Below, in pieces: positions 1 to 33,221 of a DNA stretch of 33,221 nucleotides. Origin of the DNA: a virus (lineage: Duplodnaviria > Caudoviricetes); the IMG/VR virus record IMGVR_UViG_3300027234_000001, positions 1 to 33,221 of that record; one strand, written 5' to 3'. The notes under the pieces are model-generated. The model did no database searches and was not told the DNA's origin. It saw nothing but the letters and a program-made list of their open reading frames with translations. A program made the position numbers and the translations under genes. How positions within the stretch are numbered: the stretch's first letter is position 1; each line of letters opens with the position of its first letter.

Positions 1-100
1 TAACTTTTGGGTTATTTTAAAAAGCTTGAATAGTTTTTGTTTATATACTCATAGGCGTAAAAAAAGAGGTAACTCTGGTAACTGGAATAACCTATTTCTG
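1..100. repeat. Terminal direct repeat, left copy (circular or terminally redundant genome, or assembler overlap)
   Basis: Bases 1-100 are identical to 33122-33221. Confidence 0.97.
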
Positions 101-188
101 AACCTAGATCTGTAGAGAAAAAAAAATAAAAAAAATTCCTGTACAGACACAGGTTGAGAAACAGGTTACTTCGGTTATCAAAGTTACC
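68..188. promoter_or_regulatory. Putative replication origin: imperfect inverted repeat with 9-bp-spaced TAAC/GTTA iterons around an A-tract
   Basis: 68-105 matches the reverse complement of 151-188 at 31/38 positions. GGTAAC-like units start at 68, 77, 86 and inverted units at 164, 173, 182. A-rich centre at about 116-135. Lies just upstream of the primase-helicase operon. Confidence 0.6.
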
Positions 189-246
189 TTTACAATTCTT
201 TTATATAACAATCCAATAATCAACCTACCAATTCATGTAACAATCC

Positions 247-279
247 TTAAATATACCACTATTACTACGGTAGTGGTAT
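247..279 (+). promoter_or_regulatory. Archaeal TATA box plus 9-bp inverted-repeat operator of the replication operon
   Basis: TTAAATATA at 247-255. ATACCACTA (253-261) and TAGTGGTAT (271-279) form a perfect inverted repeat reaching the ATG at 278. Confidence 0.65.
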
Positions 280-538
280 GCCAGTAAACTTTGTTCCAAT
301 AATGATACCAGAAGATTTTAGAGTGTTTTTACAATCAGTAAAAGGTGACTTATCTTATGAGAAATATATTAAATCACAGTTTCTTCTACTACTTGAATTA
401 CAAGAATGGAAACTATCACAGTTGAGAGATGAAAATTGGGATAGATCAGATGATACTTTAGAAGATAACACCGCCAGTGAAAATGCATCCAAGCACACTG
501 ACGGTAAAGAACCACACGGACTGGATGGTATAATATGA
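278..538 (+). CDS. Small RHH/CopG-like DNA-binding protein
   Basis: Strand-helix-helix pattern VPIMIPED-FRVFLQSVK-GDLSYEKYIKS. ATGA overlap with the rep gene, as in pRN-type replicons. Confidence 0.55.
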   Translation: MPVNFVPIMIPEDFRVFLQSVKGDLSYEKYIKSQFLLLLELQEWKLSQLRDENWDRSDDTLEDNTASENASKHTDGKEPHGLDGII

Positions 539-2925
539 GTGGTTATAACTCAGATAAAAAACCTTCGACACCGAATGAATGGGCTGATTTTTGGCGTTAT
601 GTCATTGGTGTGAACGTTATACCAGCAGTCAACCGAACCAAAACCCCCAAAGTTACTTGGAAAGAATATCAAGATGCACCCATACCCCAAGAACTGCATG
701 ACGAATGGAAATCGAAAGGTATGTTCGATGATGGATTGGCATCTATTATGGGTAAAGTATTCCATAATGAATCATTAAAAGACTACTGGTTAAACATGGT
801 TGACTGCGATAACAAGTTAGGCATAGAACAAATGACTGCGAATATTATCGAATTGGCTCGTGGTACTTTGGTTGAGCAAAGTGCAAACCGTGAGAAATGT
901 CATGTTTATTTTTACACAACCGAACCCCTAAAAAATAGGGTACTCCAAAATCCAACACTTGATGATCTGCCAAAAATTGAGGTAAAGTCAAGGGGTAGAA
1001 ATCTAAGTTATTGTGCTGGTGGCAAGCATAAAAACGGGTCATTGATTGACATCATTGACAATAGAATCCCAAAACATGCTGATGGGTTTCAACTTGAAAC
1101 CTTTATGGCTGGTATTTTCGCAAAGTATGAGCCAAAGAAAACAACACTGAAAGCATCACCAACTGAACATGACATGGTTAACGATCTTATAACCAGAAAG
1201 GAAGATTCTAATCGAGGGGATTTATTGATGAAAATTCTTTTCAAACAATTCTCTAGTATGTCCATTGATGTTCTAAAAAAAGATGATGTGTTATCATTTG
1301 CAAAAGACTTGGTTGCAAAGATGAAATATCCTATAGTTGATGACAGACTTGCTGGATGTGTTGATTGGGTTTATGGCAAAAGAATTGAGGATGGTGACAT
1401 ACGATTATCATATAACCAAAACAAAAAAGAAATGGATAGGATGAATATTTTATTAAAAAATAATGATGATCTCGAAGCACAAAGAAAATTTCAAAAGGAG
1501 TTCCCAGAAATATATGAATCAAAAAGAAAAAGTATTTACAAAGTTGCAAAAACAGATATTCATAAAGAAACCAAAAATATTGCTGAGGAAGAATATACAG
1601 ATGATGATTATATGATTTCTCTTGGCGATAAAATTATGAGTGAGTACACCTTCAAAACAATGACAAATCATGGACACGGTGATCATGAAACAAGATTTTA
1701 TGCCAATGGTAGGTATCAGGTAGGGGGGGCTGAGGTTATATCATCTAGAGCAAGAAAACATTGGAGTAGTATTAAAAAAGGTCAGGTAAGTGAGGTGGTT
1801 GCATATATACAATCATTGACTGGTTGGCACAGACCAGAAGAATTTGATACAAAATCAAATTTGATTAATTTAAAAAATGTGACATTTGATTTACGAACTG
1901 GATTGCCACGGGATTTAGACACAGAACATCTTACAATGATACAAGTACCTGTGTACTATAACCAACATGCAAAGTGTCCACGGTTTGATAAATTCTTACA
2001 CGCATCACTTGAGGGGGATGAAAAGAAAATCAGAATGGTTTTGGAGATGATTGCATTGTGTTTCATCAAGGATAATTTTCTTTTACAAAAAGCATTTATG
2101 AATACAGGCTCAGGTTCAAACGGCAAGTCAGTTTTATTCGGTATCATGTATTCAATGCTTGGTAATGAAAACGTCAGTACCAAAACAATCCATGACTTTG
2201 ATAACAATCAGTTTGTCGGTGCTGGACTTGACCGCAAGCTGGCAAACATCTGTGCGGATGTCGGTTCAAAGGGTATAACCAGTACGGAAGCATTAAAGAA
2301 AATAATTGGTGGTGACTCTATTGAGTGTGAGTACAAGTTTCAAATGTCCTACTCGTTCATACCTTATGCGGATTTAATTTTTAGTGCCAATGACGTACCG
2401 CATGTCGAGGACACCAGTGACGGATTTGCAAGAAGATTTGAACTGATAGAATGGACAAAGTCGTTCTATGGTGCAGATCGTGACCATACAGTCCAGACAA
2501 TAAAACACGATCCAGAAGAATTGAGTGGTATCTTTAACAAGTTAATACCAATATTTAGTTATCTTTTCAAACATCAAAAACTGATGTATGAAAGTACGGT
2601 TGCAGATGCACGAATCGCATGGTTGAAAAAGTCTGATACGGTTCTAAGATTCATTGATGACATGTGTATAACCAATAGAAAATATTTTACTCCCGTCAGC
2701 GTGTTAAGAAATGCGTATGAAAAATTCTGTGCTGAAAATGAACTAAATGATGTTGACAATAAGGATTTTATCAGACGTATGGTGCGACATGGGTGCACAA
2801 ACAAGGGGAAGAAAGAAAATGGGGATGTTTACAAAGCATGGTTTGGTATCTGTTTAAAGTCAGAAGAATCAAAGTTTTTGGTGAGTGGCGATAACAATAC
2901 AATGGACAGTTTTAAGGATGAATGA
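535..2925 (+). CDS. Bifunctional prim-pol primase / superfamily 3 (D5/P4-type) helicase replication protein
   Basis: N-terminal prim-pol motifs (NVIP..KTP..W, VDCD, HVYF, IEVK). Walker A GSGSNGKS, Walker B region KLANICAD, motif C IFSAND, Arg finger FARRF and a wHTH-like C-terminus. Confidence 0.92.
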   Translation: MSGYNSDKKPSTPNEWADFWRYVIGVNVIPAVNRTKTPKVTWKEYQDAPIPQELHDEWKSKGMFDDGLASIMGKVFHNESLKDYWLNMVDCDNKLGIEQMTANIIELARGTLVEQSANREKCHVYFYTTEPLKNRVLQNPTLDDLPKIEVKSRGRNLSYCAGGKHKNGSLIDIIDNRIPKHADGFQLETFMAGIFAKYEPKKTTLKASPTEHDMVNDLITRKEDSNRGDLLMKILFKQFSSMSIDVLKKDDVLSFAKDLVAKMKYPIVDDRLAGCVDWVYGKRIEDGDIRLSYNQNKKEMDRMNILLKNNDDLEAQRKFQKEFPEIYESKRKSIYKVAKTDIHKETKNIAEEEYTDDDYMISLGDKIMSEYTFKTMTNHGHGDHETRFYANGRYQVGGAEVISSRARKHWSSIKKGQVSEVVAYIQSLTGWHRPEEFDTKSNLINLKNVTFDLRTGLPRDLDTEHLTMIQVPVYYNQHAKCPRFDKFLHASLEGDEKKIRMVLEMIALCFIKDNFLLQKAFMNTGSGSNGKSVLFGIMYSMLGNENVSTKTIHDFDNNQFVGAGLDRKLANICADVGSKGITSTEALKKIIGGDSIECEYKFQMSYSFIPYADLIFSANDVPHVEDTSDGFARRFELIEWTKSFYGADRDHTVQTIKHDPEELSGIFNKLIPIFSYLFKHQKLMYESTVADARIAWLKKSDTVLRFIDDMCITNRKYFTPVSVLRNAYEKFCAENELNDVDNKDFIRRMVRHGCTNKGKKENGDVYKAWFGICLKSEESKFLVSGDNNTMDSFKDE

Positions 2926-3634
2926 AAAACTTGACTATACCAATGGCGAGTGTACAAGACACATACACAAGTTTGAAGACTTGACAAAAACAAGGTTGGA
3001 TGATTGGTCTGCACCTGTTATTCAGCGTATTGTTTACACGTCTGAAAAGCCTGTTGTTGTTTATGATGACTATGACGGGTACACTTGGATAGAACCGTTT
3101 GGGTTTTATTTGAGAAACACCGATCCTGTCAGATATAACCTAATACAAAAAAGCCATGATGATAACAGGGACTTTGGAACGTCAGGCGAAATTTTATGGA
3201 TAAACAGTTGTGAGTATTGTGGACATGGTATCTATCATGAGAAATATTTTATTGTCAATGACGTTGTAAAATTAAAAATGAGGATAGGCAGTTTTTGTGT
3301 CAAGTATTTTTACAATGTTATGTCTGATACGGACAACGTCAACACTTACAAACTTAAATTAATGTTGAGACAGTTCAATGATTGGTGGATGGACAGGGTT
3401 ATATTTCTGCTTAACGCATATCCACAGGACTACGGTTATGGTTATCATCGTGACCTTCGTACTGGCAAGTATGCAGGCGGTCGTCTTTATGCCGAACCTA
3501 AAAAATTATTGAAGGAACTAATGTCTTTTAATAATTTCTGGACAGCACCCACTTTAAAACAACTAAAACATATCAATACAGTAGCAAAAAACTGGGAATT
3601 GCCGTCAATGTTTGAGGACACCGATACGACATGA
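2918..3634 (+). CDS. Hypothetical protein with Zn-binding motif
   Basis: CEYCGH...IGSFC motif. ATG 2918 overlapping the rep stop is preferred over GTG 2885. Confidence 0.7.
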   Translation: MNEKLDYTNGECTRHIHKFEDLTKTRLDDWSAPVIQRIVYTSEKPVVVYDDYDGYTWIEPFGFYLRNTDPVRYNLIQKSHDDNRDFGTSGEILWINSCEYCGHGIYHEKYFIVNDVVKLKMRIGSFCVKYFYNVMSDTDNVNTYKLKLMLRQFNDWWMDRVIFLLNAYPQDYGYGYHRDLRTGKYAGGRLYAEPKKLLKELMSFNNFWTAPTLKQLKHINTVAKNWELPSMFEDTDTT

Positions 3635-3738
3635 GGTGCAAGTCATGCGGAAAGGTGGTAAGGGTGGCAACAAAGTATCACTGCTGGCAGGTCGCACAGC
3701 AGTGCGGTGCGTGCCACTATGTGGGCGGTGTAAGATAA
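3631..3738 (+). CDS. 35-aa Zn-finger microprotein (MRCK..QQCxxCHY family), absent from ORF track
   Basis: MRCKSCGKVVRVATKYHCWQVAQQCGACHYVGGVR. ATGA overlap upstream, TAATG overlap downstream, and two paralogs on the minus strand. Confidence 0.75.
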   Translation: MRCKSCGKVVRVATKYHCWQVAQQCGACHYVGGVR

Positions 3739-3911
3739 TGGCTGGCAGAAACTACGAGCTGTACTCGTACTGCAACGGCTGTACTGAACGTCCTCTGAAA
3801 CAGTATTCAAAAGACATGCTGAGATGCCCAGCATGCAATCAGAAGCTAAGACACAAGCCAAAGTCATGCTCTGCGAAAAAAACTGCCGAGAGATACTATG
3901 CTCATCTTTAA
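3738..3911 (+). CDS. Zn-ribbon protein
   Basis: YCNGC...CPAC.KLRHKPK. Start at ATG 3738 inferred from TAATG coupling. Confidence 0.75.
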   Translation: MAGRNYELYSYCNGCTERPLKQYSKDMLRCPACNQKLRHKPKSCSAKKTAERYYAHL

Positions 3912-3940
3912 ATATAAGTATAGTTTGGTATAGTCAGGGC

Positions 3941-4117
3941 ATGACTAGACCAAGAATTGATTATGATACTCAGTGCATTTGTATGGAGTGCAATCAGGTC
4001 TATCTGAAGGAATTACGTCTAACAATGTGTCCAAATATCAACTGTCACAACTCTCATTTGAGGTTCCAGTCAAGAAGTCAAACGACTAGACGCAGACGAG
4101 AGGTCAAGAGGTATTGA
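3941..4117 (+). CDS. Zn-ribbon protein with basic tail
   Basis: CMEC...CPNINC..LRFQSR. TATA box TTTAAATA at 3907-3914 supports ATG 3941. Confidence 0.7.
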   Translation: MTRPRIDYDTQCICMECNQVYLKELRLTMCPNINCHNSHLRFQSRSQTTRRRREVKRY

Positions 4118-4215
4118 GGTGCAAGCTTTGCGGAGAGACATTTGACGAGGACGACAGGTACAGGCACCAGAGTCAGAAACATTTTTGGTACTTGGGGGAC
4201 ATAACCGATGATTGA
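4114..4215 (+). CDS. 33-aa C2H2 Zn-finger microprotein, absent from ORF track
   Basis: TTG start overlapping the upstream stop. MRCKLCGETFDEDDRYRHQSQKHFW fits CxxC-x-F-x-HxxxxH. Confidence 0.65.
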   Translation: MRCKLCGETFDEDDRYRHQSQKHFWYLGDITDD

Positions 4216-5224
4216 AATAATTATGCTGTTGATGCTGGGCGGTGACACTGACATGTCAACCCAACTGGCATTTAATGTCGACGAACAAAACGAAACCGTG
4301 GACATGTTGCAGACCGAATATGACATACTTCAAGAGGAACTGACACTGATTCAGACAGACATGAACGTAAAGTATGCCGAGTGGATAAAATTAAAGTATC
4401 TTGAAGAAAACAACAACGACAGTGATGCCGTGCAACATTATCATCATTCCAACACAGGCATAGCAAAAGACGAATGGCGTGCAATGAACAGTGACATGGA
4501 AGACATGAGGGACAGGCTTGACGAGTTAAAATTTGAACTGGACACTGAAATCGTACTGCTTGAAAAGATGGAAAAGGACTTGGAAAACCTGTTAAAGGCA
4601 AATTCAGACACCGTGAGATATTCAAACACAAGCATATCTCTGTCAAAGAACTGTCAGACAATGATTAAGTACGAACTGTACACGAAATGCCCTACCTATC
4701 GGGAACTGTTTGACATGTTTGACAACTCCGACCCGACTGTCTCAGGCATGATGGTCGACTATGGATATGACATTTCAAGGGAAGACATAATGAAAAAACA
4801 CTGGAAGTTCTATGAAACGTATGATGATTTTGAACTGGTAGTGGTTGACCCTGACTCTGACTTTCAGCACAAGAGTATCAACATAGAGATTCAGCCAAGA
4901 GCATTTACGTCACTTGCACTAATCGGTGACAGCAATACAAAGAACTGGACTAACGAAAGCTATACGACTTGGCATAACTTTAAGGTTGACGACAACTGTA
5001 AAAGAATCATGGTAGCACCTGACTTGGAATTGATAGCCGAGGCTGTCGAGTTTGCTCGCAACAACTGTGACGGTGAAATGACACTGTTGGAAAACAAGAC
5101 AGTCAAGCGTGAAAGCACTGAATGGAGTGACCGTGACTGGCGTTCTTCACCGGCATTGGTATATCAGGACTGGCTAAGGAACGCCATTGAGAACAACAAG
5201 GGACTGAGATTGGGACTTGACTAA
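4208..5224 (+). CDS. Hypothetical exported or membrane-anchored coiled-coil protein
   Basis: Short hydrophobic N-terminus, acidic heptad-rich region at about aa 20-130, and Cys pairs in the C-terminal domain. Confidence 0.7.
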   Translation: MIEIIMLLMLGGDTDMSTQLAFNVDEQNETVDMLQTEYDILQEELTLIQTDMNVKYAEWIKLKYLEENNNDSDAVQHYHHSNTGIAKDEWRAMNSDMEDMRDRLDELKFELDTEIVLLEKMEKDLENLLKANSDTVRYSNTSISLSKNCQTMIKYELYTKCPTYRELFDMFDNSDPTVSGMMVDYGYDISREDIMKKHWKFYETYDDFELVVVDPDSDFQHKSINIEIQPRAFTSLALIGDSNTKNWTNESYTTWHNFKVDDNCKRIMVAPDLELIAEAVEFARNNCDGEMTLLENKTVKRESTEWSDRDWRSSPALVYQDWLRNAIENNKGLRLGLD

Positions 5225-5546
5225 CAAAAAATATAACGGAAAGTATGACAGGCTTCCGACATGGAAAAGACTGTTGCATCAGAACGCCGGATTTATCGTA
5301 ATGGGAATATCAGTGGTCATAATATTCTACGCTTGGACTCTGTATGACCAAGACCAAGAGTTCTATTCCTCATGGAGTTGCAGTAAGCTTTACGGGTACA
5401 TGGTTACCGAGTCAAACTATGGCTATCCAGACCATGACGACTTGACTGAAGCACAGCATTTGAAACTGCATGAAATCTATGCCAACGAGTGTACCACTGA
5501 CGAGGAATGGCAACAGGAGTTGGACGATATGAAGATGAAACACTAG
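5217..5546 (+). CDS. Single-pass membrane protein
   Basis: TTG start, TM segment GFIVMGISVVIIFYAW and an acidic Cys-containing C-terminal domain. Confidence 0.7.
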   Translation: MTNKKYNGKYDRLPTWKRLLHQNAGFIVMGISVVIIFYAWTLYDQDQEFYSSWSCSKLYGYMVTESNYGYPDHDDLTEAQHLKLHEIYANECTTDEEWQQELDDMKMKH

Positions 5547-5593
5547 CCGTACGGATTTTAATCTTTAAATACAACATAGTAAAAATTATATCT

Positions 5594-5743
5594 ATGGCTA
5601 GATGGGACTCTGACATTACACCGACACAGGATTTAGTCCAGATTAAACGTGACAAGTTAAAAAAATTATTGGCATTGTACGGCATCGCCGGTGCGTTGAC
5701 AGGCGTATCATTCGGACTGTATTTTTCGGGAGCTGTCTGCTAA
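5594..5743 (+). CDS. Small membrane protein
   Basis: TATA box TTTAAATA at 5564-5571 precedes ATG 5594. C-terminal hydrophobic helix. Confidence 0.6.
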   Translation: MARWDSDITPTQDLVQIKRDKLKKLLALYGIAGALTGVSFGLYFSGAVC

Positions 5744-5865
5744 TGCCTATCTCTGGATTCGGTTACGGCGTTACAAACTACAAGGTAAAAGACGGCAAAC
5801 GTTGCCCTGCCTGCGGAAAGACAAAATGCAAGCATGGCAAGGGCAGACGACCCAGAGTATTCTAA
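5743..5865 (+). CDS. 40-aa basic Cys/His microprotein, absent from ORF track
   Basis: MPISGFGYGVTNYKVKDGKRCPACGKTKCKHGKGRRPRVF, with TAATG overlaps at both ends. Confidence 0.65.
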   Translation: MPISGFGYGVTNYKVKDGKRCPACGKTKCKHGKGRRPRVF

Positions 5866-6443
5866 TGCAAGACAAGGTAAACTATATTTCCCCAGAAACT
5901 TTTGAGGACATAATCAATCACGTTCCGGTTCTGGGTATTCGCAAATGGCTGGACAATGACATTCAGATGCTCTATAAGATAATGTACTACTGTGCGTTGA
6001 GAGCCAACGAGGCAATTAATTTAAAAAAAGAGGGATTCAACTTGGAAGACAGGGAAATATATCTGGGCAAGACCAAGACCAAGAAACAGGACACGGCACA
6101 CATACCTCATATCTTTGTACAGGAACTAAAGACTTGGCTGATATTCAAGGAAAAAGGCAGACTCTTTGAGGGACTGACCTATCCAAGACTGTACTCATGG
6201 TGCAAGAGGATAGGCACTGACTTGGATATTGCCGCATGGCAAAGTCTTGAAACTGAAGTGGGTGAAAAAGTTGTGACACATTTGATGAGGAAAAGTATCG
6301 GCAAGGAGATGCTAAGCGGAACCTATGGCGAGAAGGCTTCGTCAATACCAGTAATATCCAAACACCTCAGACATTCAAAGCCTTCAATGACCGTTGACCA
6401 CTATCTTAAAGCCAGTCTTGAGTCAGTCAAAGAGGCATGGTAG
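5865..6443 (+). CDS. Tyrosine recombinase/integrase, catalytic domain only (about 192 aa)
   Basis: YCALRANE (R), KTK (K), HLMR (HxxR), LRHS...TVDHY (H, Y). Start at 5865 inferred from TAATG coupling. Confidence 0.9.
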   Translation: MQDKVNYISPETFEDIINHVPVLGIRKWLDNDIQMLYKIMYYCALRANEAINLKKEGFNLEDREIYLGKTKTKKQDTAHIPHIFVQELKTWLIFKEKGRLFEGLTYPRLYSWCKRIGTDLDIAAWQSLETEVGEKVVTHLMRKSIGKEMLSGTYGEKASSIPVISKHLRHSKPSMTVDHYLKASLESVKEAW

Positions 6444-6475
6444 TATTTTTATAGTATTAGTTTTGTACAAATATC

Positions 6476-6562
6476 ATGCCGTTTAAGAAAGGAAACAAAC
6501 CTCACAACAAGGGACATGTAAAAGTTGGCTCACATTTTAAGGCAAAGCCAAAAAAGAAATGA
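6476..6562 (+). CDS. 28-aa Lys-rich micropeptide with FKKGNKPHNKG motif
   Basis: TATA box TTTTTATA at 6446-6453. Sequence MPFKKGNKPHNKGHVKVGSHFKAKPKKK. Confidence 0.55.
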   Translation: MPFKKGNKPHNKGHVKVGSHFKAKPKKK

Positions 6563-6645
6563 CGGGTGTAAAAGGTTCTTGCAGAACAAAATACAATCGT
6601 TCTATTCCAAAGACTTACAAAAAAAAGAAAAGTAAAAAGAAATAG
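6559..6645 (+). CDS. 28-aa Lys-rich micropeptide
   Basis: ATGA overlap. MTGVKGSCRTKYNRSIPKTYKKKKSKKK. Its stop abuts the stop of the convergent gene. Confidence 0.45.
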   Translation: MTGVKGSCRTKYNRSIPKTYKKKKSKKK

Positions 6646-6921
6646 TTATTTTTTAAACTGACTCATAAAGGCATCAATCAATACCACGCAATCGTTTACC
6701 GGTTCGCTTGTATCAACTAGAAACGACTTGTTTTCCACGAACTTCAAGTCAAACTGAATGTCCTTTGTGACCATTACCACGTCGTCCCTAGTCACAAGCC
6801 AGTCTTCCAAGTCATAGTCGGAAACCCCCTGCGGCTTGAAGACCAAGTCATGTCCAAGTTTTTTTAGCTTCCTTACCAGCTTCACGTCCCTGATATTCTC
6901 GTCAAGAAATATTTTTTTCAT
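6646..6921 (-). CDS. PIN-like domain protein (DUF5615/Mut7-C type)
   Basis: Acidic motif pattern IFLDENI...LGHD...GVSD..L...VMVTKD.F. TATA-like CTTAATA about 24 nt upstream. Confidence 0.75.
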   Translation of the reverse strand: MKKIFLDENIRDVKLVRKLKKLGHDLVFKPQGVSDYDLEDWLVTRDDVVMVTKDIQFDLKFVENKSFLVDTSEPVNDCVVLIDAFMSQFKK

Positions 6922-7039
6922 GATTAGTAATTATCACGGGGTGTATTAAGTGTATAGGTTTCTATGGTAAATAACATTACGGCTCGTTGGGTTCGACGGG
7001 TCTGCATTTTGTACAAAAATGAAATCGTTTTGTCATGTG

Positions 7040-7177
7040 CTAGTATTTGGCAGAACTGATATAAGATTTTCCTGAAAAGCCAGCCATGCCATAGTGGCAC
7101 AGGGCACACTGCTGGCAAGTCCAGTTGTGTCTAGGCTTGTGGTTGTGAGAGCACTTGCCGCATGTCTTGCACCTCAT
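7040..7177 (-). CDS. 45-aa Zn-finger microprotein (MRCK..QQCxxCHY family)
   Basis: MRCKTCGKCSHNHKPRHNWTCQQCALCHYG..., ATGA overlap. Confidence 0.72.
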   Translation of the reverse strand: MRCKTCGKCSHNHKPRHNWTCQQCALCHYGMAGFSGKSYISSAKY

Positions 7178-7317
7178 GCGGATTCCTTTTTTAATTTTCT
7201 TCCTGAAACTGGGACGTTAAAATAATGACACTTTGCACACTGCTGGTTTGACTGCCAAGAGTGCCGTCCCTTTGTCTTGGTTGCCTTTACTGATTTTGTA
7301 CAAATCTTGCACCTCAT
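7174..7317 (-). CDS. 47-aa Zn-finger microprotein (MRCK..QQCxxCHY family)
   Basis: MRCKICTKSVKATKTKGRHSWQSNQQCAKCHYF..., ATGA overlaps at both ends. Confidence 0.75.
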   Translation of the reverse strand: MRCKICTKSVKATKTKGRHSWQSNQQCAKCHYFNVPVSGRKLKKESA

Positions 7318-7517
7318 GCCGTCAACTTTGACCTTGTCTTTCTTGGCTTCTGCCTAGTTGAAAGCCTGCAACGACAGCACGGACAGAATATGCCCTCGTA
7401 TGATATGCACAAACAGCAGCTACTGCATTTTTTGTAAGTCGTATTTTTAATGTCCCTTACGACTTTCTTGTGGGCGTACACTGGTTTTGTACAAATACCC
7501 TTGCATCTAAAATTCAT
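7314..7517 (-). CDS. Cys-rich Zn-finger protein resembling a small thaumarchaeal family
   Basis: CKGIC...KKCSSC...YEGIFCPCC..RL pattern, recalled from Nitrosopumilus hypothetical proteins (not searched). Confidence 0.75.
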   Translation of the reverse strand: MNFRCKGICTKPVYAHKKVVRDIKNTTYKKCSSCCLCISYEGIFCPCCRCRLSTRQKPRKTRSKLTA

Positions 7518-7789
7518 CTTTTACGCTTCCTTTTTTTCTTTGGTGCCGGCTGTGAGCTGAACATCTGAATCATCTGCAAAGTTCCCACACCTATCACGCC
7601 CATTACATGACCAGCCTGCTTGATGATTTGAATCTTTCTCTCTTTGGATTTTCTTTTTCTTTCGGTTTCTATTTCTTGCCTTGTCTGAAAGTCCGTGAGC
7701 CTGATGTTGTATTTTGTACATAAAATTTCCTGCATGTCAATGTCAAACCTAGACCACTCAAGCATGGAATAATTTTTTATGTATCTCAT
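7514..7789 (-). CDS. Hypothetical basic protein
   Basis: ORF track gives 7514-7804; ATG 7789 gives ATGA coupling. K/R-rich tail. Confidence 0.65.
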   Translation of the reverse strand: MRYIKNYSMLEWSRFDIDMQEILCTKYNIRLTDFQTRQEIETERKRKSKERKIQIIKQAGHVMGVIGVGTLQMIQMFSSQPAPKKKRKRKR

Positions 7790-8280
7790 ATGACACAAAT
7801 CCATTTCAGTTTATGTCTTCTAAAGTGCGGCTTTGAATCTTTCATGTTAAGATAGATTTTTTTCTGCTTGTACACGGGGTGGCTTGTCTGTATCAGTTTG
7901 GAATTGCATACGTCACAGCACCCGTTTTCATCTACTGGAAATTGCTTCATCCCAGTTTTTTCAAAGTGTGACATGACACACACATATTTGAACGAGTTTC
8001 TCCCGTACTGCTTGCCAATCTGCTTTCTATGGACTGAGCTACCGTTTTTATTTACCCACATGATTTTTTTATCCATGTCGACAACTTCCAGATTATAATA
8101 TCCATTGGTATCTTTGGTCATTGGCTTTACTGGCTCATAGCACAGAGAGCATATCCAGCCATCATCTTTTTGTACAAAAATATCATTCCTTGTGCCCGTG
8201 GCTGAACCTCTCACTCTCGCACCGTTTCTGATAAAATTTTTTCCAGACTGTGAGACTCTCTGTCTCTGCTGATACTTCAT
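7786..8280 (-). CDS. Hypothetical protein with two CxxC...H modules
   Basis: CSLC...VH and CDVC...PH motifs, ATGA coupling. Confidence 0.75.
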   Translation of the reverse strand: MKYQQRQRVSQSGKNFIRNGARVRGSATGTRNDIFVQKDDGWICSLCYEPVKPMTKDTNGYYNLEVVDMDKKIMWVNKNGSSVHRKQIGKQYGRNSFKYVCVMSHFEKTGMKQFPVDENGCCDVCNSKLIQTSHPVYKQKKIYLNMKDSKPHFRRHKLKWICVI

Positions 8281-8474
8281 CTTAAAGACTCCTTAAGGCT
8301 GTCTTTGACTTGAAGCATTTCCTCAAGCATGTCAAGCACATACTCGACATTCTGAATGTTTTTTAAAATGCCCTCTTTGCCATCATCGGTCGGCTCTATG
8401 GAGTACATATCTTCAAGAAAATCATAGAGGCGGATGTTCAGCCAATATGTTTTTTTCAAATCCCTGTCATTCAT
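8277..8474 (-). CDS. Hypothetical protein
   Basis: 65-aa helical ORF within the coupled operon. Confidence 0.7.
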   Translation of the reverse strand: MNDRDLKKTYWLNIRLYDFLEDMYSIEPTDDGKEGILKNIQNVEYVLDMLEEMLQVKDSLKESLR

Positions 8475-8611
8475 TGTTCCAAGTCCTTCAAAAATTCTAA
8501 TTCTTCTTTAAGACATTCAGTACAGATATGATGTTCTCCGATTGATTCAAACACATATAATTTTTTGTGACTATAACAATAATCACAAACCACAGGATGT
8601 TTTTTATTCAT
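8471..8611 (-). CDS. 46-aa Zn-finger microprotein
   Basis: CDYC...ICTEC, with ATGA overlaps at both ends. Confidence 0.72.
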   Translation of the reverse strand: MNKKHPVVCDYCYSHKKLYVFESIGEHHICTECLKEELEFLKDLEQ

Positions 8612-8772
8612 TGTCCGAACCCCTCGCCAATAGATTCAAGTTTTTCATATCTCAGGCAGTCCCGACAAACTAAAAAAACGGGTTCGTTAAAGGTACCGTT
8701 TTCGTTTTGTGTTGCGTCTATTGTCAAGTCTTTACCCTTGCAGTTCTTGCATTGAAAGTCTGTGAGGGTCAT
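8608..8772 (-). CDS. 54-aa Zn-ribbon microprotein
   Basis: CKNC...CRDC, with ATGA overlaps at both ends. Confidence 0.72.
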   Translation of the reverse strand: MTLTDFQCKNCKGKDLTIDATQNENGTFNEPVFLVCRDCLRYEKLESIGEGFGQ

Positions 8773-8951
8773 TTTAAACCCTCACTAATCAAGGCATCTA
8801 ACGAGTCCACGATTTCTATTTTAAACCCGTCCTTGACCATGTCTGTTATTTCTCTTTGTGTATACTGGCTTAATCCATAAACTGAATCGTACCAGTAGAA
8901 AGTCCAGCCGTATTTTTTAGTCGGAACTTGTGCGACTTGTAGAGTTGTCAT
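8769..8951 (-). CDS. Hypothetical protein
   Basis: 60-aa ORF coupled at both ends. Confidence 0.7.
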   Translation of the reverse strand: MTTLQVAQVPTKKYGWTFYWYDSVYGLSQYTQREITDMVKDGFKIEIVDSLDALISEGLK

Positions 8952-9088
8952 TTCTCCAAGTCCTCAATGTAGGATTCAAAACTAAACATATTTTCGTCAC
9001 AATTAGGACAAAAATATGGATAATCCAGATTTGTTTCTAGCTCTAGTATGCTCTTACATCTTTTACATTTACGGATTATAATGTTCAT
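8948..9088 (-). CDS. 46-aa Zn-ribbon microprotein
   Basis: CKRC...YFCPNCDENM, with ATGA overlaps. Confidence 0.72.
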   Translation of the reverse strand: MNIIIRKCKRCKSILELETNLDYPYFCPNCDENMFSFESYIEDLEK

Positions 9089-9273
9089 TCTTCAAACCCT
9101 CTTTGATTTGTGACATTATACCATATTTCATATAATACAACATGTCCCCGTTCTGTTAAAAATCCATTACAGGCATCCTCAACAAGTTTTAGTTGTTCGG
9201 GTTTCAAATCATCACCGTCATGGGTATTTTGTAAAATACCCATTGACAGTTTGAATACTTGACTTTGTTCCAT
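9085..9273 (-). CDS. Hypothetical protein
   Basis: 62-aa ORF coupled at both ends. Confidence 0.7.
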   Translation of the reverse strand: MEQSQVFKLSMGILQNTHDGDDLKPEQLKLVEDACNGFLTERGHVVLYEIWYNVTNQRGFEE

Positions 9274-10167: not shown

Positions 10168-10169
10168 AC

Positions 10170-24841: not shown

Positions 24842-27800
24842 ATGGCACAATCTGACTTGGAAAAAGAACTGACAAAACAGTACGAGGATGCAAAGTCAAA
24901 GTCTGCTGGCGAGGTCGCAACCGCACAGATTGAGGTCTATGAAGGTCAAACGTATGAGGCAAAAAACGCATACCAAGAGGCAAAGGCAAAAAGGTCAACG
25001 GCAAGAGGCAAACTTCCTGAGAAAATACCTGACGACAAATATTACAAGGAAAGACTGTTGGAAGCCCAGTACATCAAAGCTAGAGTATCAAGTCCAGAAC
25101 AAAGAGAAGAAATTGATGATTATACCACTGAAATAAAGAAACAGCAAAAGGCACACGCAACCGTACAGGTGTTGGACAAAGCCATGCCGTCATTGTATTC
25201 AAGTGCCGTTGAGGAATCAAAGGCGATAGAAACCAAAGTAGAAAAAGCAAGAGTTACAGAATTAAAAAGACAAGAAGAACTATTCACAGGATTTCAAACT
25301 GCAATTACAACGGAACAAAAATCCGAGAGTGCTAGAATTAAAAAGATTGAAGACGCAGAGGCAAAACGAGTTGCAGATATTACGGCATTGGAAGCCAAAA
25401 AAACAGCAGAAGCAAAAGCACTGGCAGATTCCCGACAGGCTATGTTTGACTCTACAAAGGGTATTGGAAAGAACATGAGTAATGAATTACATTATTACCA
25501 GTTTGCAGGGTTGCCGTTTGAACATGGTGATGTCATAGCAAAAGACAGAGGGCGTGGTTCAAGATGGTCGCCATCATGGAATGTATCACCGCTATACTAT
25601 GAGAGGGCTTCTGACAAATTTGGCATCACCCCAGAACAGGCAAGAGATGCTTCATTAGTTGGTGCTAGGACACAATCAGGCAAGGCACGAGATAACGCAC
25701 TTCGAGCATTTCAGGATGCCAATGACGGTGGCAACAGAGCAAACCAATATGCACAAAATAGAGCATTGGCAAAAAAGACAACCGCATCGGCATACGGTTC
25801 AATGTCAGCGATTGAACGGTCAACAAGTTCCGCATTGGCTTCGGAGTTTGCAACAAACCCTGATGCAAAAAAGAAAAACGATTTGGGTGTGTTACATGAA
25901 ACAAGTGGCGGCTTGATTGGTAAGTCAATAAAAGATACTGGTGTTGCAAAAGGGGAACCTTCATCGTTCAAGGTGTATGAAACAAACGAGAAGTTATACA
26001 AGTCAAGCAACGGATTATTGGGAAAGAAAGATGTCACTGCCAAAGTCATGCCAATCATCGAGAAGCAAAGAGAAACAGAGCTGGCAAACAGAAGGCAACA
26101 ACAATATGTTGAAGAACTTCGTGCTGGCAATATCGGTATCGCAACTGCATTGACAAACCCACAGACGACGCAAAGTTATCAAAACACTTCAACTGTGAAT
26201 CTTAAAGCATATTTGGATGACCGCAAGATTGTGGCTCACACAACATCTGACTCGTTGTTTAGTGCCGATGTAGACAAAAGAGGAATGGGTGTAAAGGTTA
26301 CTGGAAAGGAAGTCACTGAAAGAAAACAAGCACAGGAAAGGATTGATGTTTTCAAACCTACGGTTTACAACACGCAAAAAGTGGAAGGTTCAACTGCTGT
26401 AAAATTTACCAATCTGTCTGAACCGACTGTCGGCACACTTGACTCAGGCGGTGTGTTGACAAAGAAAGATTTTAATCCTTATTCTGCCAGTGACCCTATC
26501 GGAATGGCACAGGGCTATAAGTACACGGTTCCAAGCAAAGGCGTTACTGCTTTCCCTACATTGACTGGTCAAACATTTGACGCAAAGACCCCCACTTCTT
26601 TTGATACAATGGCTGAAGCAAAGGCATATCTTAAAGAAAGTAAACCGAAATTATTCTCTGGAACCGACAATGAAATGTTTAACAGATGGAATTATCCTTC
26701 GGCAGTTGACACTGGCGAGGTGATACATCCAAGTAAGACCAAAACTTTGTATGACGACGTAAGACTGGGATTTGGATACGTCTTCAGACCGACTTACAAT
26801 ATCGGTGCCACTGTTTACAATTTAGCACAGCCTGAGAATAAACAGGTTCCAATATTTGCAACTGCCGAAGACAAGTTAATCGGTGGTACTATCACTGATG
26901 TTATGGACGGTACACCGTTAAAAGGTACAGGTGTAACTGGATTTGCTGACTATGTTGTAGAAAACCCGTTAAGGGCTTTGGCTGAAGTTCCAAGTGCCGT
27001 TGTCACAGGTGTCTTGGGTGGCAAGGCAGTAACTTATGGAGTCAAAGGAGTTAGTGCTGGTGTAAAGGCATCAACAAAACTTGGCAACAAGATAATTCAA
27101 AGTGAGGCACCTACAATCATCAAGGTTCCGACTATGGCTGTGATGGGTGCCGGTCAGGCAGTTCAACGTGTCGGTACAAAAATATCCGCAGTTCCAGTGA
27201 AGATAGGAAGTGCAGTTTACGATTACGGTACGATTCCAAGAGGTATGAAATATGGTACGCAGGTTTTCACAACCCCGCAACAGGTGGTACGTCAGGGAAT
27301 TGTAAGACCTTATGACAGTGCGACAATGTTTCAGGGAAATCGTGTCGGGTTTGGTGCTAAGGCTAATTTTATTTTGACACCTTCAGGCAGAATGTTTGTA
27401 AGACAGTCAACTGATATTGCCGGTGAGATAGGTGCAAAGCCGCAGTTCCTTAACAGACAGGTTGCCATGTTTGAGAATGAAAACGTCGTAGGATTCGCAA
27501 CAAGAGGCAAGATGAAAACAACAAAATATGAAATGCCAAAAGAAACACCGTTCAAGTCTGATGTGTTTACACCAACTGGTAAAACAAAATTAATTCCAAA
27601 AGAAACCCCTTATTCAAAACCGTTAGATTCTGTAACAAGTATTAGAATTGGTAAACCTGATATACAAACGCCTACCGTTACATCACCATTAAAAAAACCT
27701 GATATTTTTGACAGAATTAAATCAACCACGTTGTACAGAACAAAAGTCAGTACAAAACAATACAAGACAAACATTGACGAGGTTACATTTTACTCAGATA

Positions 27801-29443
27801 CCACTGGTGATTTGGTCAAGGGTGTCAAAAGACCTAAAGCCGAATTGCAAGGCGAGGGTGTCAATTACAGGGGATTTGAAAAGCCTGAGATAACTGGAAC
27901 CCGAACAAGACTTCAGGATTACAAGACTTCAACAAGTCAGTCAACAATCAAAGGTCAGCTAAAGTATTCTGAAGTTGCCGGTGGCAAGATAAAGTTCAAG
28001 GGAAGTCCGATAAGACAGGTTGACACGATAGTCACTGGTGCAAAACTTACTGGCAAAAAGAACTTGAAACTAATTGATGATATGGTAGAAGAAGGACAGA
28101 TTGAAGAAGTTGGAAAGAAGACTGTAATGAAGGGGACTGATTATTTCGGGGGTGGCAAGAAGGCTGGTCAGTTAAAACAGTCATTGGAAAGCAGAAACCC
28201 TACAACGTATGAAGCCCAAAGTGGAAAGATAAAACCAAAAGATGAAACAATACTTTACGGCGTAAGCAAGGGAAAGATTCCAGTTGACAAGAAGGCTTTC
28301 GCACAGACCATGAAGGAGTCAAACCTTCTCAGAGAGATGGCAGACAAAGCACCGCTAAACAAAAAGCCTGTCGTCCCAAAGGGAGTTGACGAGCCAGTAG
28401 GAAAGTATCACGCATTTGTCGGTGAGTCAAAGTCAACTGGTAAGACTTTTCAGGGAACTAGAATTGAACTTGGTTCAGGCATTGGTACAACGGGTGTCGG
28501 CAGTAGTTTCACAAAAACAAATGTTGACTTGGGTAAAGGTGGTGGTATCTCTAACATAAAAGATGTTAAAGGAATGTCTAGCAAACCTGATGTTGTTGGC
28601 GTTACAACCAATAGAATAAACGTAAAAAAGTTTGAAGAACCTAAAATACAAAAAGGTGATAAGATAGTTGACGGTAAAGAGGGGTCAACTGTTCAAAGAA
28701 CAAAACTTGATACATTCCAAGAAACCAAAATCAAACTGGGTCAAAGTGCAGTAGCAAAACCAGCACAGATACAAGTGCCAAAAGTTAAGGCTAGTGTCAA
28801 GTCACCAAAGGTTTCGCCAAAAGTTAAACAGATTGTCACACCTACCGTAAGTCAAAAAACTGGAACTGGTTTGGTACAAGAAACTGCACAGTTGACCAAG
28901 CAACAAACAAAACAACAATCTAAGATTAAACAGTCACAACGACTAAGAGCAATTCAAAGTCAGGTTGCAGTGACAGCAGTAGTTGCAAGAACGGCACAGA
29001 TTCAAGCCACCGCCACAATGACACCATCAGTATTACAAAGAACTGTTGCAAGAAAACCAGCAGTGACCATGAACATTGACTTGCCTGTCCCTGAAAGAAA
29101 GCCAAGAAAAACAAAGCGTGGAAAGAAGGCTGGCTTTATCGGCAACGTAAGACTTGACAACGTCATGGGCATGTACAAGAGAAAGGAAATTACATACGGT
29201 CAGAAGAAAGTTAAAAAATTAGAAAGACAGGACATGAGACTGACGGCTGGAACCTCAAACAGAATATCAATGCCGGCATCAGGACTGCTAAAGACCAAGA
29301 AGAAGAAGAAAAAGAAAACTGAAACAGTCTTTGGCAGAACCGTAGCAAAGACTAGGGACGAGTTTTCAGGATTCGTATCAAAGCCTAAAGGCAAAAAGAA
29401 AGGCAAGAAGAAAACCAAATCTACAAAAGTCAGATTAATGTAG
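24842..29443 (+). CDS. 1533-aa Lys-rich protein of unknown function, probable internal virion protein
   Basis: Coiled-coil N-terminus, Gly/Ala/Val-rich centre, K/T/Q-rich C-terminal half with poly-Lys tail, and no Cys. Confidence 0.85.
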   Translation: MAQSDLEKELTKQYEDAKSKSAGEVATAQIEVYEGQTYEAKNAYQEAKAKRSTARGKLPEKIPDDKYYKERLLEAQYIKARVSSPEQREEIDDYTTEIKKQQKAHATVQVLDKAMPSLYSSAVEESKAIETKVEKARVTELKRQEELFTGFQTAITTEQKSESARIKKIEDAEAKRVADITALEAKKTAEAKALADSRQAMFDSTKGIGKNMSNELHYYQFAGLPFEHGDVIAKDRGRGSRWSPSWNVSPLYYERASDKFGITPEQARDASLVGARTQSGKARDNALRAFQDANDGGNRANQYAQNRALAKKTTASAYGSMSAIERSTSSALASEFATNPDAKKKNDLGVLHETSGGLIGKSIKDTGVAKGEPSSFKVYETNEKLYKSSNGLLGKKDVTAKVMPIIEKQRETELANRRQQQYVEELRAGNIGIATALTNPQTTQSYQNTSTVNLKAYLDDRKIVAHTTSDSLFSADVDKRGMGVKVTGKEVTERKQAQERIDVFKPTVYNTQKVEGSTAVKFTNLSEPTVGTLDSGGVLTKKDFNPYSASDPIGMAQGYKYTVPSKGVTAFPTLTGQTFDAKTPTSFDTMAEAKAYLKESKPKLFSGTDNEMFNRWNYPSAVDTGEVIHPSKTKTLYDDVRLGFGYVFRPTYNIGATVYNLAQPENKQVPIFATAEDKLIGGTITDVMDGTPLKGTGVTGFADYVVENPLRALAEVPSAVVTGVLGGKAVTYGVKGVSAGVKASTKLGNKIIQSEAPTIIKVPTMAVMGAGQAVQRVGTKISAVPVKIGSAVYDYGTIPRGMKYGTQVFTTPQQVVRQGIVRPYDSATMFQGNRVGFGAKANFILTPSGRMFVRQSTDIAGEIGAKPQFLNRQVAMFENENVVGFATRGKMKTTKYEMPKETPFKSDVFTPTGKTKLIPKETPYSKPLDSVTSIRIGKPDIQTPTVTSPLKKPDIFDRIKSTTLYRTKVSTKQYKTNIDEVTFYSDTTGDLVKGVKRPKAELQGEGVNYRGFEKPEITGTRTRLQDYKTSTSQSTIKGQLKYSEVAGGKIKFKGSPIRQVDTIVTGAKLTGKKNLKLIDDMVEEGQIEEVGKKTVMKGTDYFGGGKKAGQLKQSLESRNPTTYEAQSGKIKPKDETILYGVSKGKIPVDKKAFAQTMKESNLLREMADKAPLNKKPVVPKGVDEPVGKYHAFVGESKSTGKTFQGTRIELGSGIGTTGVGSSFTKTNVDLGKGGGISNIKDVKGMSSKPDVVGVTTNRINVKKFEEPKIQKGDKIVDGKEGSTVQRTKLDTFQETKIKLGQSAVAKPAQIQVPKVKASVKSPKVSPKVKQIVTPTVSQKTGTGLVQETAQLTKQQTKQQSKIKQSQRLRAIQSQVAVTAVVARTAQIQATATMTPSVLQRTVARKPAVTMNIDLPVPERKPRKTKRGKKAGFIGNVRLDNVMGMYKRKEITYGQKKVKKLERQDMRLTAGTSNRISMPASGLLKTKKKKKKKTETVFGRTVAKTRDEFSGFVSKPKGKKKGKKKTKSTKVRLM

Positions 29444-30471: not shown

Positions 30472-30544
30472 GTGTACAATGTGCGGTGCGGACAACCACT
30501 TTGGAAACATGAAGTGCAAAGAATGTGAGCAGAACTTTGAATGA
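30455..30544 (+). CDS. 29-aa Zn-ribbon microprotein
   Basis: MTKRIKCTMCGADNHFGNMKCKECEQNFE. Confidence 0.6.
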   Translation: MTKRIKCTMCGADNHFGNMKCKECEQNFE

Positions 30545-31217
30545 GATAATACTTGGGGATTGTCTTGAGAAGATAAAAGACATACCTGACAATTCCATTG
30601 ACCTTGTTATTACAAGCCCACCTTACGATAACATTGAGGGTGCAGGGTATGGCAAAGGCACTAAAGATGTACTGTTCTTAAAGTTATATTCAGAGTTCTT
30701 TGGAAGCATACTTCAACAGGTAAGAAGGGTGTTAAAACCAACAGGACAATTTTATCTTAACCTAAAGAGTGGAACTATCGCAAAGACATTGATAACACCA
30801 CATTGGATTGAGTTTCTTCCAGAGTTTAAAGACTTTAAATTAAAATCATATATTATATGGAAATACTCAGGTTCATTCGATAGTACAAAGGCAAGGTTTC
30901 ATTTAGATTATGAGATAATATACCACTTATCAAAGACTGATGACATATCAATTAACTATGAGGAAGGAGAGCATGACCCGTTAACTTCAGTATGGAACAT
31001 ACCACATCATATTAAAGATAGGTTACACCCTGTACAAATGCCTGAGTTACTTGCGGAGAAGATAATAAAACGTGGAAGCAAAGAGGGGGAAGTTGTATTG
31101 GATATATTCGCAGGGAGTGGAACTTCACTTGTTGTTGCAAAAAGATTAGATAGAAAATACATAGGATTTGAGATAAACCCAAAACATTATGAAACAATTA
31201 AGGAGAGACTAAAATGA
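30525..31217 (+). CDS. DNA methyltransferase, N4-C/N6-A beta class
   Basis: GDCL, IDLVITSPPY (motif IV) preceding HP..MP and VLDIFAGSGT (motif I), GFEIN. True start may be TTG 30537. Confidence 0.92.
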   Translation: MSRTLNEIILGDCLEKIKDIPDNSIDLVITSPPYDNIEGAGYGKGTKDVLFLKLYSEFFGSILQQVRRVLKPTGQFYLNLKSGTIAKTLITPHWIEFLPEFKDFKLKSYIIWKYSGSFDSTKARFHLDYEIIYHLSKTDDISINYEEGEHDPLTSVWNIPHHIKDRLHPVQMPELLAEKIIKRGSKEGEVVLDIFAGSGTSLVVAKRLDRKYIGFEINPKHYETIKERLK

Positions 31218-32102: not shown

Positions 32103-32198
32103 ATGGAATCTAACTGCCTGCCATGTCAAAACGGCACGCATCAGGACAGACAGTGTACCTATCGTTGCAACTGCACACATGAGGCACATGAGGAATGA
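32103..32198 (+). CDS. 31-aa Cys/His microprotein
   Basis: CLPC...H...C...CNC.H pattern, TATA box TTTAATATA at 32073-32081 and ATGA coupling. Confidence 0.6.
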   Translation: MESNCLPCQNGTHQDRQCTYRCNCTHEAHEE

Positions 32199-32734
32199 AC
32201 TTTCCAGATAAAAAATATAACATTATCTATGCAGATCCACCGTGGTCTTATCCTAAATCTGGGGGTAAAAAATCAGCTAGGGGATTAGCAAAGTCATTCT
32301 ATGATACCATGACAACAGATGAGATAAAAGATATTGATGTTCAGTCAATCAGTCAGGATAATTGTTATTGTTTCATGTGGACAACATCCCCAAAACTACC
32401 CGAATCATTAGAAGTTATGAAAGCATGGGGATTTGAATACTTTAATGTCATATTCACATGGATAAAAACAAACAAGGTATCAGATACATTATTCTGGGGT
32501 ATGGGTAATACTACAAGAGCCAATGCAGAATATGTGTTACTTGGTAGAAAAGGTAAACTAGACAGATTAAATGCAGGCGTTCATTCTGTTGTAATGTCAA
32601 AGATAGAAAAACATTCAAAGAAGCCTGATGAAGTTAGAAATCGAATCGAGTCATTATATGGAGACTTACCACGTATAGAATTATTTGCAAGAGAAAAGAT
32701 AAATGGGTGGGATTCATGGGGTAATGAGTTATGA
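32195..32734 (+). CDS. MT-A70 family adenine methyltransferase
   Basis: IIYADPPW, FMWTT, AWGF.Y...FTWIK, HSKKP, IELFAR and GWDSWGNE motifs. Confidence 0.93.
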   Translation: MNFPDKKYNIIYADPPWSYPKSGGKKSARGLAKSFYDTMTTDEIKDIDVQSISQDNCYCFMWTTSPKLPESLEVMKAWGFEYFNVIFTWIKTNKVSDTLFWGMGNTTRANAEYVLLGRKGKLDRLNAGVHSVVMSKIEKHSKKPDEVRNRIESLYGDLPRIELFAREKINGWDSWGNEL

Positions 32735-32835
32735 GCTGGTTTAACCTGTCTGTAAACGCCAAGACCTGTAAAAGATGCAAGCAAAGAATTATGAACTATC
32801 CATGCGTGGAATGTGGATTTAATATAACCCGATAG
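32731..32835 (+). CDS. 34-aa Zn-ribbon microprotein
   Basis: CKRC...YPCVECG, ATGA overlap. Confidence 0.62.
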   Translation: MSWFNLSVNAKTCKRCKQRIMNYPCVECGFNITR

Positions 32836-33043
32836 AGGGCGTCATTCTATCGGTGTAAATGAGTGCCAACGCAAATTAGTACTCAATAGTTTAATCATGT
32901 CAAAACCTTAAAAGGTTTGGTTCGTGACGAATTTAATCTAATCAACGAACTTGTTCTAATATCTGTCATATTATATTTAAGATTACAGTAAACTGGGACA
33001 TTCATTGGCGTAGCCATTGTGCTCGGTTTTAGTATTAAAGATA

Positions 33044-33062
33044 ATCGGACACGGTGTCCGAT
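33044..33062. repeat. Perfect 9-1-9 palindrome
   Basis: ATCGGACAC-G-GTGTCCGAT. Confidence 0.8.
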
Positions 33063-33121
33063 CTTCTTATAAGTTATAACAGCACCGCTAATTGGGTTTA
33101 TATATGAAAGGTTTATAAAGG

Positions 33122-33221
33122 TAACTTTTGGGTTATTTTAAAAAGCTTGAATAGTTTTTGTTTATATACTCATAGGCGTAAAAAAAGAGGTAACTCTGGT
33201 AACTGGAATAACCTATTTCTG
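33122..33221. repeat. Terminal direct repeat, right copy
   Basis: Identical to 1-100. Confidence 0.97.

Follow-up and report, generated by a model that had tools for sequence, protein, structure and literature searches.

Related systems and identity of the virus

Nipumfusiviridae is a family of uncultured viruses, one member of which, NMC1, was described by Ni et al. in 2024 (PMC10866085) and is the ICTV exemplar of Marefusivirus columbiaense, ratified in 2025 (PMC12451623). The accessible part of the description proposes the major capsid protein (MCP) from structure, remarks that a family B polymerase is absent and names Nitrosopumilaceae, at limited confidence (iPHoP 0.55–0.67), as the predicted hosts. 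In its main text, as far as accessible, the terms primase, helicase, integrase, recombinase, circular and provir- have zero occurrences; the supplementary spreadsheet lists a P4-family primase match (38%) for NMC1 gene 2 and an integrase match for gene 8, and the supplement annotates a primase/helicase and a XerD-like gene in NYM1. The window analysed here, which is the whole 33,221-nucleotide IMG/VR record IMGVR_UViG_3300027234_000001, is this same virus. Its bases 1–33,121 are identical to GenBank entry BK067789 (isolate NMC1, 33,121 bases; 0 mismatches, equal coordinates of the open reading frames, ORFs), and it is longer only by the final 100 bases, which repeat the first 100. Likewise, primase-helicase (796 aa) and MCP candidate (88 aa) both matched one phage record at 100%, with equal coordinates. 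The ORFs of BK067789 carry no functional names.

The original prediction, made from the sequence alone, had proposed a new chimeric lineage joining a spindle virion module to a plasmid-like replicon, unless the genome proved to belong with an already described virus. It is itself such a virus, and the claim of novelty is not supported; as a virus discovery the window adds nothing. What is new here is, first, that the replication gene and the likely origin form a cassette differing from that of the four sister species, and, second, the presence of the same predicted coat gene on small elements of likely host chromosomes. Cassette exchange and probable satellites are modest additions. By tblastn, NMC1 shares an average identity of 69–75% with four other Marefusivirus genomes (over 24–27 shared genes) and of 38–44% with five other family genomes (over shared genes; NTT2 not among them), values that place it within Nipumfusiviridae under the identity criterion of the family proposal (PMC12451623, as accessible).

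The closest described systems are the congeners NMM1, NMH1, NMP1 and NMJ1, which resemble NMC1 in MCP (94–98% identity), ATPase (86–92%), recombinase (83–90%) and gene order, but possess a Cys-rich superfamily 3 (SF3) helicase without prim-pol domain, another palindrome and small gene, and neither of the NMC1 methyltransferases. Wyrdviruses have a comparable spindle module, replication genes that lie at an equivalent locus without being orthologous, and some circular members; however, they encode protein-primed family B polymerase (pPolB) or HUH Rep instead of SF3-based initiators, and their hosts are Asgard archaea (bioRxiv 10.1101/2021.07.29.453957, as accessible). Thaspiviridae (NSV1, compared by its description) and Halspiviridae (His1) share with NMC1 the predicted morphotype and the ATPase, and NSV1 also the host family, whereas their genomes are linear and encode a family B polymerase; NMC1 is devoid of inverted terminal repeats and pPolB. 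Fuselloviridae, represented by SSV1, are similar in their circular map, in weak VP1/VP3 similarity and in a weak likeness of the ATPase (E 0.36), but SSV1 has a 335-aa tRNA-targeting integrase that is unmatched by the family recombinase, and no primase-helicase is annotated in it; neither an SSV-type integrase nor integration at tRNA genes (no provirus in 401 genomes) was found for NMC1. Replicons of the primpol-S3H type in thaumarchaeal integrative and conjugative elements (ICEs) and cryptic integrated elements (CIEs) have the same architecture of an archaeo-eukaryotic primase (AEP) and SF3 helicase, and the same host group, but are integrated and carry no spindle virion module (PMC6563490, as accessible). 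Circular spindle genomes with an AEP primase are described for Itzamnaviridae, and an AEP primase is also carried by the spindle-related A3-VLP provirus (PMC5862659, accessible part). The union of a spindle module with plasmid-type replication has also been published for wyrdviruses, the A3-VLP provirus and the SRCE satellites discussed below. The accessible portions of two further papers (PMC13573593, PMC9796341) contain nothing specific on exchangeable spindle replicons.

Taking the evidence together, we consider it quite probable that NMC1 is a predicted spindle-shaped virus with a likely host among the marine ammonia-oxidising Nitrosopumilaceae, which likely exists as a circular episome and replicates from an exchangeable cassette made of a palindrome and a prim-pol/SF3 gene. 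The spindle morphotype and the ammonia-oxidising host named in the original prediction are thereby retained, both as likely.

The replication cassette of NMC1

The whole cassette measures ~3.7 kb and comprises a palindromic candidate origin, a small gene, the prim-pol-SF3 gene and ORF3. Its right part, with the candidate origin, ORF1, ORF2 and ORF3, occupies positions 1–3605 (plus strand), and its left part (33020–33121) continues over the junction of the genome ends; the borders follow from nucleotide homology with the congeners, which in all four stops at 32,992–33,021 and resumes at 3,606–3,629. The candidate origin is an imperfect palindrome of 123 bp with a central A-tract (67–189), around which lie outer inverted arms (33091–33128 and 180–217). 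Its score of 61, against a maximum of 50 in 1,000 dinucleotide shuffles, is the best in the genome, the next being 42.

ORF2 (535–2925, plus strand; 796 aa) is the predicted replication initiator. Matches to Pfam and PHROGs cover an AEP prim-pol domain (Prim-Pol, E 0.003), D5_N, DUF5906/SF3 and Pox_D5, and the protein is above the cut-off for TIGR01613 (P4-family primase C-terminus), so that the prim-pol/D5 helicase recognised from the sequence alone is borne out. Residues D90, D92, H123, E149 and H165, which we take to be those of the AEP active site, are invariant in 16/16 aligned homologues. With AEP catalytic motifs joined to an SF3 helicase, ORF2 has the make-up of a pRN1-like replicon protein. 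The N-terminal prim-pol domain has 56–58% identity to domains that other metagenomic proteins (P0063–P0068) carry attached to an MCM-type helicase, an observation pointing to shuffling of primase domains; a search with ORF2 in IMG/VR returned no match. The small gene upstream, ORF1 (278–538, plus strand; 86 aa), is a likely regulator that occupies the slot of a 64-aa gene of the congeners, labelled ribbon-helix-helix (RHH)-like from its sequence; it has no match in 10/10 relatives and none in Pfam. ORF3 (2918–3634, plus strand; 238 aa) is cassette-specific and received no function in sequence searches. As originally reported, no pPolB, terminase or portal is encoded among the 45 ORFs (Pfam, PHROGs), and tblastn with the His1 pPolB gave no match in 11/11 family genomes.

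Exchange of cassettes within the family

The accessible description of the family leaves replication unexplained. Comparison of its members reveals that the candidate origin co-varies with three types of initiator in one slot. Relative to the four congeners, the core genes of NMC1 are 75–98% identical, whereas ORF2 can be aligned only over its SF3 part, at 25–27%. The congener helicases (553–557 aa; 81–93% identical among themselves) have a Cys-rich N-terminus and no Prim-Pol match, and the initiator of NBD1 resembles them in layout. NYM1 and NBC1 encode a third initiator protein (44% identical to each other), with a weak primase/polymerase PHROG match in NBC1, and this third type is found in the same slot of a Marefusivirus-like contig (L016), 52% identical to that of NYM1. 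In the three Terrafusivirus genomes (L009, L010, L011) the recombinase is kept, yet no replication gene was recognised, including in a scan of 24 larger ORFs from two of them. The slot also holds a different palindrome in NMM1, NMP1 and L016, each scoring above 1,000/1,000 shuffles. Because palindrome and initiator change together, the palindrome at 67–189 may well be the replication origin.

Since the homology borders are sharp and the initiators are 25–27% identical against an average of 69–75% for shared genes, the replicon is best regarded as an exchangeable cassette that has been swapped and not as a trait of the lineage. The prim-pol/SF3 type by which the chimeric lineage had been defined is present in only one of the 11 family genomes, the congeners carrying a primase-less SF3 helicase, and the replicon is thus unusable for defining the lineage. 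In a tree of SF3 helicases (25 rows; L016 and P0027 left out) the NMC1 protein clusters with metagenomic primases (100/99), and those of the congeners fall together with the helicases of the mini-elements described below (99/100). A chromosomal island in genome G042 encodes a 728-aa primase-helicase whose SF3 region shares 45% identity with that of ORF2.

Contigs from public runs X2, X8 and X11 leave the NMC1 sequence at 33,018 and proceed to a congener-type palindrome; in X8 a contig rejoins it at 3,612 from the C-terminus of a congener helicase, and there, over 607 identical bases, depth goes up from 39.7 to 64.5. From these joints it seems that both cassettes sit on near-identical flanks. 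Branching of contigs at both cassette borders is also what might be seen if the cassette were an artefact of chimeric assembly, or if a separate plasmid-like element had been wrongly attached to the virus, and the source contig of one congener is indeed joined to a second virus. We nevertheless hold such a mis-joining to be extremely improbable: individual contigs in X2, X3 and X11 lead from the cassette across ORF4 and into ORF5, at flat depth and with 0–2 differences, 10 near-identical ORF2 proteins are on record, and the cassette occupies the very slot of the congener helicase. A loose end at position 33084 in runs X2 and X3 leads to other sequence, possibly a further type of cassette.

Integrated elements carrying the predicted capsid gene

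Elements of 4–5 kb integrated in chromosomes contain the same MCP gene, an integrase and either an HUH-like Rep or the helicase of the sister species, the ATPase being missing. MCPs found inside such elements in host-family chromosomes are 65–71% identical to that of NMC1, and these relatives speak for Nitrosopumilaceae as the likely host; they give the uncultured family host support at the level of the chromosome, beyond the weak published prediction.

In the class with HUH-like Rep (L041, L044, L045, L099, L101, L146, L154) the MCP is 65–88% identical and no other virion gene is present. A 4.3-kb representative (L041; G270:C28:67969-72256) encodes an integrase, the HUH-like Rep, small Zn-finger-like genes and an MCP of 71% identity. 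It is flanked by a 12-bp direct repeat resembling an attachment (att) site, the right copy of which forms the terminus of a tRNA-Ser(CGA) gene with an intron; similar elements are located in G270:C16 (L044) and G308:C23 (L045). The Rep, without match in Pfam, PHROGs or NCBIfam, was labelled HUH-like because of an HFH motif and a conserved Tyr. Of the 401 genomes, 49 encode it (47 if two unpublished ones are set aside); it had no match in IMG/VR, and at its other loci, within ~1.5 kb of flank, the MCP was found in 0/22. The second class (L109, L131, L133, L147, L121, L145; also L134, L125, L111) combines the MCP with an RHH-like gene, a Cys-rich SF3 helicase and an integrase, and L131 ends at tRNA-Ser(CGA). 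Among the best 80 of at least 124 confirmed metagenomic MCP loci, 63 had virus core genes as neighbours, 4 the Rep module and 13 neither; 12 of these 13 were inspected, all with mini-element genes, six of them with a helicase 46–64% identical to that of the congeners. No end repeat or free circle was detected on any of the 16 mini-element contigs inspected, of which several are partial. Mini-element and viral MCPs are intermingled in a tree with weak support. A 3' fragment of a family MCP gene and no more of it, likely a relic, is located next to a GAPDH-like gene of one host chromosome (G391:C4:52158-52280).

With a spindle MCP, a plasmid-type Rep or primase-helicase and no other virion genes, the mini-elements have the make-up of SRCEs, the satellites of haloarchaeal spindle viruses, and resemble pSSVx and pSSVi; unlike SRCEs, they are integrated, reside in Nitrosopumilaceae and lack an ATPase, and the helicase of one class is also that of the putative helper genus (bioRxiv 10.1101/2025.02.15.638363, as accessible). 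Judged by gene content they are probable satellites, in which case capsid-encoding satellites would extend to abundant marine nitrifying archaea. A literature search, which covered few subscription journals, returned no report of such elements for Nitrosopumilaceae. As a broader proposal, which we put forward tentatively and with slightly less than even confidence, nipumfusiviruses might be parasitised by integrated capsid-encoding satellites and trade whole origin-plus-initiator cassettes, the congener helicase having come from the satellite pool and the NMC1 prim-pol-SF3 from another host element, with alternative cassettes segregating within one population.

Genome ends and topology

The 100-bp direct repeat noticed at the ends of the window is exact (1–100 and 33122–33221); IMG/VR classes the record as having direct terminal repeats, the right copy is missing from BK067789, and no terminal inverted repeat exists at the window ends. 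A circular map, as originally proposed, is supported by contig overhang, a permuted contig and congener gene order. In 4/4 public runs the contig covering base 1 extends 67 letters further, the length of 33,055–33,121, with which a branch at 33,084 and equal depth over 33,082–33,221 agree. A contig of 34,168 bp, the fetched stretch of which is 99.98% identical over 9,289 bases, is opened inside the MCP gene. Sister contigs have end overlaps of 48, 127 and 123 nt in three congeners, at unrelated places, and the gene order is unbroken across the junction in all four. Because contigs are cut elsewhere and the congener overlaps differ in length and place, the repeat most likely arose as an overlap in the assembly of a genome that is circular or permuted, and is probably no biological end.

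Virion DNA that is linear and circularly permuted, cut from concatemers, would yield the same assemblies as a circle, and the topology entry of the GenBank record is linear; the circular map would then not equal a circular packaged genome. We judge this improbable, given that neither a terminase nor a portal is found among the 45 ORFs and that circular genomes of spindle viruses have been published.

The tyrosine recombinase

The gene at 5865–6443 (plus strand) encodes a tyrosine recombinase of 192 aa, as was initially recognised: it matches PF00589, and the catalytic residues R46, K71, H139, R142, H170 and Y180 are all intact. The protein consists of the catalytic domain only; an N-terminal domain is present in none of 62 homologues, mostly of 185–211 aa. 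Because of this architecture and because no provirus was found in 401 genomes, it is a likely resolvase, which probably resolves multimers rather than integrates.

Alternatively, the recombinase could be a true integrase and NMC1 a temperate virus forming proviruses like fuselloviruses. The six intact residues, the retention of the gene in 10/11 family genomes (orthologues in nine of the other ten), 'site-specific integrase' matches in the accessible supplement of PMC10866085 and the chromosomal location of one orthologue are in line with this possibility, which we still regard as unlikely. Searches of 401 Nitrosopumilaceae genomes by MCP profile, recombinase and DNA recovered no full provirus: the MCP matched in three of them, none a provirus, and small MCP-bearing integrated elements were found in place of the proviruses that the original prediction suggested looking for. 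No att-like match of bases 1–16,500 recurred in host genomes, there is no tRNA gene in the window, and the SSV1 integrase has no match to the family recombinase. A close chromosomal recombinase was found in one of the 401 genomes only, in a ~9-kb element adjoining ilvD (gene labels read from sequence). Besides a separate, full-length integrase of 350 aa, this element (L174; G186:C1:727821-736466) encodes the minimal recombinase, a helicase of Marefusivirus type and an ORF of 1,050 aa, with no MCP match. Two candidates for an att site or spacer were discarded: 8484–8513, a recurrent match of 22–28 nt, falls inside host coding sequence at 4/4 loci checked, and the host match of 13970–13996 is also inside coding sequence.

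Predicted capsid and other virion proteins

The predicted MCP, ORF33 (16162–16428, plus strand; 88 aa), was modelled as a helical hairpin with two helices (predicted local distance difference test, pLDDT, 82), in keeping with the two-helix candidate of the original prediction. Its similarity to fusellovirus capsid proteins VP1 and VP3 is weak. Among 273 six-frame segments of SSV1 and His1, SSV1 VP3, the only SSV1 capsid protein compared by name, was the best match (E 0.006), and His1 ORF21 was not among the top matches. Fifteen of 76 MCP homologues reached the VP1 PHROG (E 0.018–1), which is also matched by SSV1 VP3. Foldseek against PDB and BFVD, together with VIA-align, retrieved generic helical hairpins only, among which no spindle MCP stood out, and a PDB sequence search with the MCP profile gave a single weak match, unrelated. 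The lack of a structural or significant profile match would also suit a reading in which ORF33 has no capsid role, the element then being a plasmid or a virus of non-spindle type. We consider that very unlikely. Both MCP and ATPase have orthologues in 10/10 other Nipumfusiviridae genomes.

ORF34 (16499–16768, plus strand), a second two-helix hydrophobic protein, is kept in 10/10 relatives. Its identity to the MCP is only 18%, and PHROGs gave no match for it; that it is an MCP paralogue, as had been claimed, is at most plausible. The giant adhesin and the ATPase are confirmed: the former, a predicted adhesin or tail protein of 2,331 aa (16771–23766, plus strand), has LamG, F5/8 and fn3 domains and hydrophobic ends, and the latter, ORF28 (12128–13201, plus strand), is a P-loop ATPase with Walker-A motif and AAA/Zot-like look-alikes, conserved in 10/10 relatives.

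Proposed mechanism

ORF2 would load at the A-tract palindrome (67–189), its SF3 domain unwinding the DNA and its AEP domain priming synthesis. Elongation would fall to the host polymerase, because no viral replicative polymerase was found. The minimal recombinase may then resolve genome multimers without integrating. MCP hairpins, ATPase and adhesin would form virions which, if other spindle viruses are a guide, leave the cell without lysing it, and integrated mobile elements in the host family are the likely partners with which the cassette is traded.

Several points weigh against this reading of NMC1. Neither a virion nor a host nor an intermediate of replication has been seen, and everything beyond the identity of the genome is inference. 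The support for the MCP is weak (SSV1 VP3 at E 0.006, generic results of fold searches), and the Prim-Pol match of ORF2 is under the Pfam cut-off. The homologue search for the recombinase spanned only 105–336 aa; the 401 genomes are a sample, many of them incomplete, and the DNA search against them spanned bases 1–16,500. Co-occurring species, not recombinants, could explain the branches in 31-mer contigs. Finally, the evidence for the junction is drawn from the lengths of contigs and from neither raw reads nor letters, each of the four runs carries a flag as a possible source, and a circularly permuted linear virion genome would look identical.

Further genes and observations

Besides ORF34, the core ORFs kept in 10/10 other family genomes are ORF27 (11535–12128, plus strand; 29–92% identical, with Cys pairs), ORF30 (13866–14339, minus strand), the membrane proteins ORF31 and ORF32 (14641–16104, plus strand) and ORF37. 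They presumably correspond to the published conserved Zn-binding protein and three core proteins of unassigned function. A basic low-complexity protein of 1,533 aa (24842–29443, plus strand) has no family match; Terrafusivirus encodes shorter proteins (640–654 aa) of like make-up.

In the GTDB genomes, a pattern search with the ATPase alone gave 13 matches, none confirmed, and a search with alignment gave four short contigs with family genes, three of them in bacterial metagenome-assembled genomes and probably mis-binned. Only 5–9% of words were present in RNA runs. The extra 25 kb on the NMJ1 contig, considered as host DNA, proved to be a second related virus: this region (G001:C1:1-25356; L018, L019) is a nipumfusivirus-like genome of more remote kinship (ATPase 32%), which adhesin repeats connect to NMJ1.

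Two methyltransferase genes are accessory, an N6/N4 DNA methyltransferase (30537–31217, plus strand) and an MT-A70 family methyltransferase (32195–32734, plus strand), both skipped in co-occurring genotypes. Congeners have PAPS-reductase-family genes near this region, and joints bypass the methyltransferases, which points to a hotspot of gene exchange. A near-palindromic motif of the TTTGTACAA type, at 6462, 7008, 7295, 7486 and 8169, occurs in a cluster of small minus-strand genes and before the basic ORFs; it is possibly a regulator or a recombination site. Two unannotated, lysine-rich ORFs of 28 aa each (6476–6562 and 6559–6645, together 6476–6645, plus strand), directly follow the recombinase gene, are conserved in 5/5 Marefusivirus genomes by DNA alignment and are candidates for DNA-condensing peptides.

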